Virus record (IMG/VR): IMGVR_UViG_3300042898_002099
DNA: 64,000 nucleotides
Strand: one strand, 5' to 3'
Source: a virus
Part shown: positions 40,964 to 45,525 of the stretch, piece by piece
Numbering within the stretch: the first letter of the stretch is position 1
How the letters are laid out: every line of letters begins with the position of its first letter
Notes under the pieces: model-generated
Database searches by the model: none
What the model was told of the DNA's origin: nothing
Seen by the model: the letters and a program-made list of their open reading frames with translations, nothing else
Position numbers and translations under genes: made by a program

Positions 40964-42289
40964 TTACTTTACAGATTTACTTGCCTCTGCCGTACTTTTA
41001 TCTTCACGTAATTCAATAAATCTAGGTAAGAACAAACTCTCACTTTCGCCAGATCGTTCTTTAATACGTGCATTATAACGTACAGTAATAATTTTTCCTA
41101 TTACTTTTTTGTCAAACTCTGCTCGTTGTTCATCCGAATAACCAGAGCCAACATTAACACGAATAACACCGTCACTTGTTTCGCATACTAGTGCGCCTAA
41201 GCGACCTTTGTTTTTACCAGTACCTTCTTCCCAGTCAACTACCATCAGATCACATTCAAGTTCTCCCTTGAACTTAATTTGATCTTTAGATCGGCGATCT
41301 TCCCAAATACCTGTTTTGGATTTTAGAATAGTACCTTCTTGACCTTCTGCCAAGAACTTCTCAAAGATTTTTTGTGCTTCATATAAAGTATCTACTTGCT
41401 TAGTCCACACTAAATCTACATAATGTCTAAATTGGTCAAAATTAGATTTAACGTGTGAAATACAATTATTGAGTTTGCCCAATCTAACATTGTAGGGCTC
41501 TTTGTCAATACCTTGTTTGAATGAAGCATATGGAATAGCATCCCACAATGTAGCTCGTACGTTTTCAGCTTCAGTATTACTCATTGTACCTTTAATTGCT
41601 TTAGATAAAATGCCGTTACCTGTTTGTCTATTAACTGGTTTACCTGCATAATCTGCAACTAACAATTCACCATCGAATACCATATCATCTTTATAGAATT
41701 CTGCCATCTTAATAAATGGTATTGGGAATGATGGATTAGGAATAGTTATTTCCTTACCATTGCGTGATCTAAATTCTACTACGCCGTCTTTGACGATTGC
41801 ATTGAATCGCATTCCGTCGAGCTTGAGCTGACAAAGCGCGGGGAGTGCGATTTTGTCGACAAGCTTTTGGTCGTATCCAGAAGCCAACATAACTGGGTAT
41901 GTCGAAATAATACCGGGCCAAATTTTATTTGCTGTGGCTTCGGAGACTCCGCAACGGAGGTCTTTTGCAATAACACGCTCAATGATTTTGGCATTTTCTT
42001 TACTCAAGTTAGATAGAACATTACGTAGATGTGAAATAGCATTGTTGCCTGTTACTGTTCGACTAGACAATAGTGATAAATCATCTAATGCCTGTTCCAA
42101 AGTTTTGCTCTCTGAAACAAAATCGTAACTTGGAATTTTTCTAATGTAGAATTGAATGAACGGGTCAAGTGCAAGATAGAAAACTTGTTTAAGTGTTTTG
42201 TTATCTTTGTTTTTAACAAGAATTGCTTCTTTAGCTAAACGGGAATTATCATTTGCTAATTGTTCAAATATATTATAGATCATACTCAT
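40964..42289 (-). CDS. gp30: ATP-dependent DNA ligase gp30
   Basis: KLDGMR, FDGEL, EG.ILK, W...RS....KFK, VGSG.SD..R, LFLPRF...R.DK. Confidence 0.95.
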   Translation of the reverse strand: MSMIYNIFEQLANDNSRLAKEAILVKNKDNKTLKQVFYLALDPFIQFYIRKIPSYDFVSESKTLEQALDDLSLLSSRTVTGNNAISHLRNVLSNLSKENAKIIERVIAKDLRCGVSEATANKIWPGIISTYPVMLASGYDQKLVDKIALPALCQLKLDGMRFNAIVKDGVVEFRSRNGKEITIPNPSFPIPFIKMAEFYKDDMVFDGELLVADYAGKPVNRQTGNGILSKAIKGTMSNTEAENVRATLWDAIPYASFKQGIDKEPYNVRLGKLNNCISHVKSNFDQFRHYVDLVWTKQVDTLYEAQKIFEKFLAEGQEGTILKSKTGIWEDRRSKDQIKFKGELECDLMVVDWEEGTGKNKGRLGALVCETSDGVIRVNVGSGYSDEQRAEFDKKVIGKIITVRYNARIKERSGESESLFLPRFIELREDKSTAEASKSVK

Positions 42290-43994: not shown

Positions 43995-44023
43995 ATTATA
44001 ACATCTTTTGACGATGTTGTCAA
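43995..44023 (-). promoter_or_regulatory. Sigma70 promoter
   Basis: TTGACA-17-TATAAT. Confidence 0.85.
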
Positions 44024-44136
44024 GTCTTATCAAAAGCCCTAAATTTATGTTCAAGAAACATTCTACTATCGTGATTAGGATCGTCGGGAATCGTTCCTTG
44101 ATCTGACCATTGTTCTTTTGGCACAGAAACTGGTTT

Positions 44137-44196
44137 TTCTTTGAACCAGGTCAGGATGCGTTCAAAGAATCCGTCTTTTTTGCCTTCGGTTCTCCC
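44137..44196 (-). promoter_or_regulatory. dnaX-type programmed -1 frameshift signal
   Basis: GGGAG, 10 nt, in-frame A_AAA_AAG (44181-44175), 5 nt, 10-bp stem TTCTTTGAAC/GTTCAAAGAA. Confidence 0.75.
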
Positions 44197-44642
44197 AATG
44201 GCGGAATGATTGGCTTATTAGGCAATAGACCAGGAAAAGCTTCTCTTACCAAATCTTCTTTCAATGATTTGTATTTAGTTTGTAGTTTTCTATCTTTAGC
44301 TAGACACACTGCTTCAGCTTCTGTCCAATGAATGCCTTCAAGCAATTGAATAAACAACTGCTCTTTTCTAGCGCGAGTCAAATTAACATCATTTTGTAAC
44401 CAAATATAAAAACGTCTAAATTCTACATAAAGATTTGACTCAGAATAACCTGCAGGTATAGATGTATCCTTTTTGTAAGGAGGCTCACCTTCAGGTAAAC
44501 TCATTTTAACATTTGGATCAAAATTAATTTGCAACATCCCTTTTAGAATAGGATGGTCATATGCTCTTAATGTTTTAATCTTGGCTTCTTTGGAGCCAGC
44601 CTTTTCAACTTCATCAAAAATCTGTGGGATAGATGTTTTCAC
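44151..44642 (-). CDS. Conserved T4-like hypothetical protein (163 aa; 207-aa frameshift form would end at 44020)
   Basis: FDP.V...LPEG.PPY, E.LFIQLLEG.H..EA......KD; follows RNase H as in T4-like phages. Confidence 0.8.
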   Translation of the reverse strand: MKTSIPQIFDEVEKAGSKEAKIKTLRAYDHPILKGMLQINFDPNVKMSLPEGEPPYKKDTSIPAGYSESNLYVEFRRFYIWLQNDVNLTRARKEQLFIQLLEGIHWTEAEAVCLAKDRKLQTKYKSLKEDLVREAFPGLLPNKPIIPPLGEPKAKKTDSLNAS

Positions 44643-44643
44643 T

Positions 44644-45525
44644 TTAAAATTCCTCTATAACTTCTAGCATGTTCTTCATTTTATGTTCAACAAAGAAAGT
44701 TAATAATTTACTTTTATCTTTTGTCGGCTTATCGGTATAAGTATTTATAATAGATTCTTTAATTGAAGTTGGGATGCAATCAAAACTAACTAGTTTGCGA
44801 TTACGCTCATAATTTGTTTTGAACTCAGCATCCTGTGGCATAGCATCAAAATCTTTATACCATATATCCAATTTATCTTGTCTAATAGCTTTTTGTCTTG
44901 TACCGGTTACAATACTATCATCTGCAGAAAGAACATTGGGGATACCATCACCCTTGTCACCTCGAATAATATGTTCAAACAAATATTTTTCTGGGCTAAT
45001 ATCTGATTTTACATATTTCTTTTGAATAGGTGAAAATTGTTTAACATTCTCATATTTTTGCAATTGAATAAAGTCATGATCGCCTGATAATACTAAGAAT
45101 GGTTTTGGTTCTGAAAACAATACATTACTAGTATCATTTGTCTGAGACCATTCTGCCAATACTGCAATCACGTCATCTGCTTCTGCGCCATCGACATTAA
45201 TTACTTTATATGGGAAGAATACATCAATCTCACTCCTAATAAGATTCAATGCTTCGAAAATTTGTTTCCAATCCAAGCCAGATGCTTCACGAGCCTTTTT
45301 CCTGCCCGCCTTATAGAACTTAAATGCTTCTCTGCGCCAATAATTTTGATTGTCGCAAGCAATCACAATCTCGCCAAATTCTTTACCGAATTTTTGTTTA
45401 TAGCTTCTAATAGAATTTAGAATCATATGACGTAGAAGTGGTACTTGCACCTCGATGTCATTACGGCTGCCAATCTCCATCATAAGATTAGAGATGGCTG
45501 TTTGATTAAAGTCAACTACGATCAT
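44644..45525 (-). CDS. rnh: T4-type RNase H (5'-3' exonuclease)
   Basis: VD.NQ, LRHMILNS, YWR...F..YKA.RK, EADD.I, SGD.DF.QL, GD.GDGIPN. Confidence 0.95.
   Translation of the reverse strand: MIVVDFNQTAISNLMMEIGSRNDIEVQVPLLRHMILNSIRSYKQKFGKEFGEIVIACDNQNYWRREAFKFYKAGRKKAREASGLDWKQIFEALNLIRSEIDVFFPYKVINVDGAEADDVIAVLAEWSQTNDTSNVLFSEPKPFLVLSGDHDFIQLQKYENVKQFSPIQKKYVKSDISPEKYLFEHIIRGDKGDGIPNVLSADDSIVTGTRQKAIRQDKLDIWYKDFDAMPQDAEFKTNYERNRKLVSFDCIPTSIKESIINTYTDKPTKDKSKLLTFFVEHKMKNMLEVIEEF

Follow-up and report, generated by a model that had tools for sequence, protein, structure and literature searches.

A probable programmed -1 ribosomal frameshift adds a conserved tail to the DUF6433 protein of T4-like phages

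The DUF6433 gene of an uncultured freshwater T4-like phage (IMG/VR virus record IMGVR_UViG_3300042898_002099) ends in a sequence that appears to direct a programmed -1 ribosomal frameshift, by which a protein of 163 amino acids (aa) would also be made in a longer form of 207 aa with a conserved tail. Here, we have analyzed a 64,000-nucleotide (nt) stretch of this record (the window; all coordinates refer to it unless a locus is named) together with related loci. On the basis of these comparisons we put the probability of the frameshift at about 85%. Comparison supported the site, the shifted frame, the constraint on the tail as a coding sequence and the RNA structure. This mechanism is well known, and what is new is its occurrence in the DUF6433 gene family: no description of a frameshift in the replication-gene block of T4-like phages was found in the literature searched, in Pfam or in PHROGs.

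All parts of the signal lie on the minus strand. The zero-frame open reading frame (ORF; 44151..44642) consists of the DUF6433 body (residues 1-141), a hypervariable linker rich in Pro, Lys and Glu, two lysines at the slip site, seven further codons and a TGA stop (44153-44151). Near its end the strand reads GGGAG (44192..44196), which resembles a Shine-Dalgarno (SD) sequence, followed by AACCGAAGGC (10 nt), the slippery heptamer A_AAA_AAG (44175..44181), ACGGA (5 nt) and a 3' hairpin (44137..44169), in which TTCTTTGAAC (44169-44160) and GTTCAAAGAA (44146-44137) form a 10-bp stem around a 13-nt loop. Since the zero frame reads GCA AAA AAG, the heptamer stands in the X_XXY_YYZ phase; the zero-frame stop falls within the hairpin loop, seven codons past the heptamer. 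From the last base of the heptamer, the -1 frame (44020..44175) is open for 51 codons up to TGA at 44022-44020, and the predicted long form would therefore comprise 156 + 51 = 207 aa. The latter stop is contained in the -35 hexamer of a sigma-70-type promoter, TTGACA-17-TATAAT (43995..44023, minus strand; 12/12 match, with TG before the -10 hexamer), which serves the next gene downstream (129 aa, 43971-43582, minus strand) and is kept in close relatives. Thus, the tail occupies the entire gap. The arrangement of these elements, the 51-codon open frame and the filling of the gap up to the next promoter had all been pointed out in an earlier note on this DNA, and re-reading of the minus strand gave the same layout throughout and the same residues. 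The spacer of the promoter is AAAAGATGT.

Two sets of relatives were compared. The close set comprised the 80 closest IMG/VR relatives (protein 66-98% identical), which collapse to 46 distinct DNA variants and 39 distinct tails (tail alignment A1). The distant set comprised 32 readable loci, found via short stand-alone ORF calls of the tail and a further scan, with bodies 51-63% identical to the L097 query. All 80 close loci had an in-phase A_AAA_AAG or A_AAA_AAA, located 7-9 codons (in one locus 18) ahead of the stop, and a complete -1 ORF of 50-53 codons was present in 79 of them, the last one (L044) leaving its contig after 14 codons. The +1 frame shuts after 0-4 codons in most close loci. 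An in-phase heptamer with the tail in the -1 frame was also found in each of the 32 distant loci, and the extension measured 49-63 codons across both sets. The 10-25 residues ahead of the heptamer form a hypervariable Pro/Lys/Glu/Ala linker in the close loci, and the heptamer is kept regardless (A_AAA_AAG in 30 of the 46 variants, A_AAA_AAA in 16). The codon before its AAA is GCA, GTA, CCA, TCA or ACA; the amino acid varies and the wobble base is A in all 46 variants. Among the distant relatives, one lineage (L190/L191; L190:865-1014) carries G_GGA_AAC in place of the A-run, and its frames overlap by 16 nt only (CGTATTGGGAAACTCTTAA), so that the change of frame must occur at G_GGA_AAC. Thus, the alignment of orthologous gene ends, which the earlier note had named as a check on its proposal, agreed with it for the heptamer (80/80 close and 32/32 distant loci) as well as for the stem, which was kept with compensatory changes as described below.

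The extension itself bears the marks of a translated sequence. Nine residues are invariant in tail alignment A1 (F4, K12, W23, G27, D36, R38, A47, F48 and D49), and the consensus is xGFFERILTWFK..P..E.KE.WSD.G..PPDP.YD.R.F.E..YRAFDK. In the same alignment, the ratio of nonsynonymous to synonymous polymorphism (pN/pS) was 0.53 in the -1 frame versus 0.90 and 1.37 in the other two frames. Among the nearest relatives of the window, 11 of 17 variable sites were third positions of -1-frame codons, and four relatives differed from the window solely by changes that are synonymous in this frame. When 1.84 billion representative proteins were searched exhaustively with a profile, no in-frame fusion of body and tail came up. 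The tail had eight matches there, seven of which were short ORF calls (37-93 aa); the eighth, a 564-aa repeat protein, matched weakly and partially and was regarded as spurious. The 120 closest of 582 body homologues were 148-179 aa long, and 80 homologues of the cyanophage type stop right after the body (...EAFPxIQWGGRS), with no linker, heptamer or tail. A DNA search of the locus against cultured phage genomes gave no match, and the tail, compared with 50,697 phage records by tblastn, had a single spurious match (E = 6); thus, that collection contains no cultured phage with the tail.

It might be argued that the tail is an independent small protein, translated either from an internal start or, once the zero frame has terminated, by coupling or reinitiation, and that the heptamer merely encodes two lysines. 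Gene callers indeed list the tail as ORFs of 37-46 aa. In addition, the heptamer is missing from one lineage (L100/L101; L100:2013-2641, same coordinates in L101), in which an ORF of 46 aa encodes the tail by itself and starts at an ATG that shares bases with the stop (TAATG, within GTA AAG TAATGG). However, no start codon of the -1 frame is conserved in alignment A1, and the first candidate in the window, a GTG at 44124, has no SD sequence and is located past the invariant F4 and K12. Moreover, the -1 frame opens merely 1-3 codons upstream of the heptamer in several lineages, the heptamer and the NNA wobble base ahead of it are invariant while neighbouring residues vary, and the alternative G_GGA_AAC would be hard to explain as a coincidence. 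We consider this explanation very improbable.

RNA structure provided a further line of support. RNAfold gave -13.7 kcal/mol for the hairpin of the window (55 nt folded, outer pairs flanking the 10-bp stem included); in most of the 46 variants a hairpin of -7 to -17 kcal/mol lay 4-7 nt past the heptamer, and in one lineage it lay at 11 nt. The stem was then assessed in a 33-sequence alignment, with the pairing partner slid by 1-3 columns as a control and with 500 shuffles. It was paired in 90% of cells, compared with 29-61% for the slid partner; four pairs showed changes on both sides, and the observed score was reached by none of the 500 shuffles. Divergent lineages rebuild the stem from other sequence (CCCTTcGAAAG/CTTTCtAAGGG in L077), and in three loci (L074, L075 and L079) it is extended outward (GGCTTC.../...GAAGCC). 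As for the SD-like element, the duplex of GGGAG with the anti-SD sequence (-7.3 kcal/mol) was the best of all positions in the gene. The element is kept in the clade of the window and in several others, and in L184/L185 an AAGGAGG stands exactly 10 nt 5' of A_AAA_AAG. Finally, a complete 190-kb relative (G001; 162308-170590, L240) encodes 26 tRNAs, among which tRNA-Lys(UUU) is present and tRNA-Lys(CUU) is absent. Such a phage itself supplies the tRNA that slips on A_AAA_AAG, and this might raise the level of frameshifting.

A second small hairpin is found at 44149-44130 on the minus strand (CTGGTT-8 nt-AACCAG, then TTTCTGTG) and looks like a terminator in the clade of the window only. Part of it is shared with the 3' arm of the frameshift hairpin; the two structures are therefore mutually exclusive. 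We did not retain it as a terminator: the count was not above that of shuffles, and none of the relative sequences inspected had a T-run behind it.

The same 207-aa protein could also be produced by transcriptional slippage, if RNA polymerase added one A within the A6/A7 run and the edited mRNA were then translated conventionally. The product would be identical, 16 of the 46 variants have a run of A7, and the constant NNA codon ahead lengthens the run. Efficient slippage by bacterial RNA polymerase needs a run of about 8-9 or more, whereas the run here is just 6 nt in 30 of the 46 variants and never longer than 7. G_GGA_AAC, in its 16-nt overlap, has no long homopolymer and argues against RNA polymerase slippage. 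In addition, the phase of the heptamer is strictly kept, and a hairpin (at 4-7 nt) and an SD-like element (at about 10 nt) are conserved, all of which matter to ribosomes and not to RNA polymerase. We therefore regard slippage during transcription as a rather remote alternative. That an unselected open frame and a chance motif coincide here and yield no second product is next to inconceivable, since, even though A-rich Lys codons are generally frequent in AT-rich phage genes, 112 loci keep the -1 ORF with residue conservation and codon-position bias, even where the identity of the body to the L097 query falls to 51-63%.

It should be noted that several observations weigh against a ribosomal frameshift. 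The two arms of the stem also code for peptide, F-F-E and F-K-E (TTCTTTGAA and TTCAAAGAA being reverse complements), and the constraints on RNA and on peptide are thus not fully separable; most stem pairs are invariant. The stem is A/U-rich, with three G-C pairs out of 10, and much weaker than that of E. coli dnaX, so that the efficiency of frameshifting may be low. The SD-like duplex reaches -4 kcal/mol in just 29 of the 46 variants, and roughly one lineage in three has a weak SD-like element or none; therefore, the element appears to be an optional enhancer and no fixed part of the cassette. The separate ORF in L100/L101 points to either termination-reinitiation or a single-tRNA slip at A_AAG beside the stop, and unless the latter occurs, the tail can apparently function unfused. 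Finally, no tail relative of known function was found in Pfam, PHROGs, a word-indexed search of longer proteins, the ESM Atlas or the 1.84 billion proteins.

Given a programmed frameshift, translation of the gene might proceed as follows. Most ribosomes would read GCA AAA AAG, add seven more codons and stop, releasing the 163-aa product, which would consist of a stand-alone DNA-binding fold of the ligase type and a flexible Lys/Pro-rich linker. The hairpin, 5 nt downstream, would make a fraction of ribosomes pause on A_AAA_AAG, and in the clade of the window, pairing of GGGAG with 16S rRNA 10 nt upstream would add help. The two tRNA-Lys would re-pair one base back and a further 51 codons would be read, giving the 207-aa isoform with the same body and a linker that bears the conserved tail. 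If the tail acts as an interaction module on a flexible tether, frameshifting might hold constant, at the replication fork, the proportion between free and tethered forms of a protein that binds nicks or DNA. Both isoforms had been proposed in the earlier note; they remain predictions, now consistent with the in-phase heptamer, the coding signature of the -1 frame, the covariation of the hairpin and, in the clade of the window, the SD-like element.

The signal shares its three parts with that of E. coli dnaX (tau/gamma): an SD-like element 10 nt 5' of the slip site (GGGAG here, AGGGAG in dnaX), A_AAA_AAG decoded by tRNA-Lys(UUU) and a 3' hairpin. In both cases (here by prediction) a replication-associated protein exists as two isoforms, distinguished by a C-terminal region for interactions. 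On the other hand, the genes are unrelated (DUF6433 with its ligase-type DNA-binding fold versus a clamp-loader ATPase), and the shifted frame of dnaX stops after one codon and gives the shorter product, whereas here the shift would add 51 residues and give the longer one. Together with the weaker stem, the SD-like element that is not universal in the clade also differs from dnaX. Thus, the heptamer and the hairpin fitted the description of a complete cassette of the dnaX type, and the SD-like element fitted it, at 10 nt, in the clade of the window and not in all lineages. With the longer product being the shifted one, the outcome rather resembles the phage tail assembly chaperones G/GT, IS3 OrfA/OrfAB and T7 10A/10B, in which ribosomes move to the -1 frame towards the end of a short ORF and make a minor fusion with a C-terminal extension. 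There, too, the extension is exclusive or almost exclusive to the fusion, and the layout is kept across many phages despite sequence divergence. The present site differs from them in lying in a replication gene block and not in a virion or transposase gene. It belongs to none of these gene families, nor is it this phage's own tail chaperone pair.

We also examined the body of the protein. DUF6433 (PF20025) was its sole Pfam family (E 1.1e-28; 100 bits versus a gathering cut-off of 38.9), was matched by 32/32 aligned relatives and was not mentioned in the literature searched; in PHROGs the protein belongs to phrog_461, annotated as of unknown function. An AlphaFold2 (AF2) model from a 42-sequence alignment, to which cyanophage, rhizobiophage and intermediate homologues had been added, reached pLDDT 90.6 and pTM 0.85. 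It replaced an earlier AF2 model from a shallow alignment of close relatives (pLDDT 62), which had given weak matches to ligase DNA-binding domains. The top Foldseek match of the new model was T4 DNA ligase (6dt1; E 8e-4, TM 0.69), and the isolated DNA-binding domain (5wfy) scored TM 0.68/0.72. VIA-align, a structure search independent of Foldseek, was run against 48,161 chains and gave 5wfy at Z 14.1 (129/132 residues, root-mean-square deviation 3.5 A), 6dt1 and the Prochlorococcus ligase (6rce) at Z 13.8 each and the Rhizobium-phage ligase at Z 11.0, followed by human LIG3, LIG4 and LIG1 and archaeal ligases down to Z 5.9. The top 12 matches were all ligase DNA-binding domains, and the next, unrelated chain had Z 2.8.

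A compact, all-helical minimal DNA-binding domain has been described for T4 DNA ligase (PMC6212786). The body model superposes on it (5WFY, 6DT1; PMC6212786) over the whole domain, and the fold is common to the Prochlorococcus and Rhizobium-phage ligases. Judging from the model, the DUF6433 body is very probably a stand-alone copy of this compact helical domain. It should be noted that sequence identity to T4 ligase is only 15-18%, that no match to Pfam DNA_ligase_A_N was reported for the body even at E <= 10 and that profiles of the body gave no significant match to sequences in the Protein Data Bank (PDB). Unlike T4 ligase, the DUF6433 protein has no nucleotidyltransferase and OB domains, and neither PF01068 nor PF14743 (the catalytic and OB domains of ligases) matched the 163/207-aa protein. 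Hence, it cannot ligate. Three complete cyanophage genomes (KU686210.1, OR003938.1 and IMG/VR G003) contain DUF6433 and lack the catalytic domain of an ATP-dependent ligase. Two cyanophage records name their DUF6433 homologue 'DNA ligase', which is a mislabel. The 487 DUF6433 matches in cultured phages came from cyanophages, pelagiphages and phages of Methylophilales, rhizobia and Caulobacter, with no Escherichia phage among them; the gene is therefore not a universal T4 core gene, contrary to the earlier view of its product as a T4-like core protein.

The tail has two parts. The first is an amphipathic, aromatic-basic segment (FFERILTWFK), and the second is a C-module of the form KE.WSD.G..P.DP..D.R......[YF]RAFDK., the best conserved part, which holds most of the invariant positions. 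GFFERILTWFK has a hydrophobic moment of 0.58 and a mean hydrophobicity of 0.23 and is preceded by KK and followed by K. From lineage to lineage, the composition of the first segment is kept and its sequence is not (FFERILTWFK, LLKWFFKPK, NFFSFFGKFFTK, IKLFFRFFQRDK, FMQYLLSFFMKK), a pattern that is typical of in-plane membrane helices and lends some support to the idea of a membrane-targeting helix; a caveat is that Phe and Lys/Glu codons also make up the hairpin arms. The helices of MinD and FtsA are likewise short, amphipathic, rich in Phe, Trp and Leu and flanked by Lys. Unlike these, the tail segment is not terminal, since 38 residues follow it up to the closing YRAFDKT, and the same bases form the frameshift hairpin. 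Thus, of the MinD-type helix first proposed, the amphipathic, aromatic-basic character stood, and the likeness in position did not. No significant match of the tail was found among PDB sequences (best E 0.28), and no second copy of it occurs elsewhere in the window.

We also considered binding to the sliding clamp. In T4, clamp-binding motifs are attached via a linker in gp33 and gp55 (PMC7892883), and the ligase binds through the loop KKEPEGLDFLFDA (PMC6212786). The T4 motifs (gp43, gp33, gp55 and the ligase loop; PMC6212786, PMC7892883) and the long isoform share a layout of body, flexible basic/proline linker and short hydrophobic amphipathic helix, and FERIL follows the same hydrophobic-acidic-x-hydrophobic-hydrophobic pattern as LDFLF of T4 and LEGLF of the clade's gp43. 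However, the clade's own motif, [ST]xLExLF[GA], is strictly C-terminal (the DNA polymerase gp43 of G001 and G002 ends in ATLEGLFG), whereas FFERIL is internal, varies by lineage and has an acidic residue that is not conserved. The candidate was therefore downgraded: clamp binding is possible and not supported. The C-module may be a small protein-binding module, and the amphipathic segment might contact the membrane or a partner in the replisome. For the tail as a whole, interaction with a replisome partner is the role that we would tentatively name first; membrane anchoring is only slightly less likely, and some other role is less likely still.

In T4, nicks serve as clamp-loading sites for late transcription. 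It is conceivable, although we consider it quite unlikely, that the frameshift sets the ratio of free to tail-tethered forms of a catalytically dead ligase-DNA-binding-domain protein (tethered to replisome, clamp or membrane), which would bind nicks at the replication fork and control whether they are sealed, processed by the neighbouring RNase H or kept open. If this were true, the site would be a translational rheostat for the maturation of Okazaki fragments and the protein a new class of replication accessory factor, and the 13 codons at the start of the tail would carry three layers of information, namely peptide, zero-frame end and stimulatory hairpin.

The present data add a deeply conserved putative recoding site to the DNA-replication gene block of T4-like phages, and the predicted 207-aa isoform is missed by automatic annotation in hundreds of environmental phage contigs. 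They also assign for the first time, on the basis of a model, a fold to DUF6433, which almost every marine cyanomyovirus carries, including cyanophage genomes without a ligase, and the function of this widespread gene thereby becomes testable. In addition, the natural series of variants (A_AAA_AAG, A_AAA_AAA and G_GGA_AAC, with or without an SD-like element, and the lineage with a separate ORF) forms a ready data set for finding out which stimulators of frameshifting are essential.

The gene lies within a replication block. Directly upstream is a T4-type RNase H/5'-3' exonuclease of 293 aa (44644..45525, minus strand; Pfam 5_3_exonuc_N and RNaseH_C, phrog_107), and the DUF6433 gene directly followed rnh in every locus inspected. 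The genes dsbA and DNA ligase follow within about 2.5 kb, and gp33, gp59 and gp32 are farther away. The ligase is a separate gene (40964-42289) for a full ATP-dependent enzyme of 441 aa with its own N-terminal DNA-binding domain.

In relatives of the rhizobiophage type (Sinorhizobium phage phiN3 gp198, L217:1988-2176; L220-L227), DUF6433 also comes after rnh and is followed by a small overlapping ORF in the same position as the tail, encoding a very charged protein of 60-70 aa (for example, ...EYEYEEFDAEEY...SRYAFD...). These ORFs were rejected as tail homologues, as they gave no significant profile match; ORFs downstream of DUF6433 in cyanophages were likewise rejected as tail homologues or frameshift products, having neither a heptamer nor any similarity. 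Finally, two adjacent proteins of G001 (455 aa, L238:1820-3187; 429 aa, L238:3184-4473) end in SLEDLFA and NLESLFA, respectively, which is the C-terminal motif of the clade's gp43 and in T4 marks the position that binds the sliding clamp. The latter had no Pfam match and the former had weak GT1/GT4 glycosyltransferase matches below the Pfam cut-offs, and both may be sugar transferases that modify DNA while attached to the clamp.

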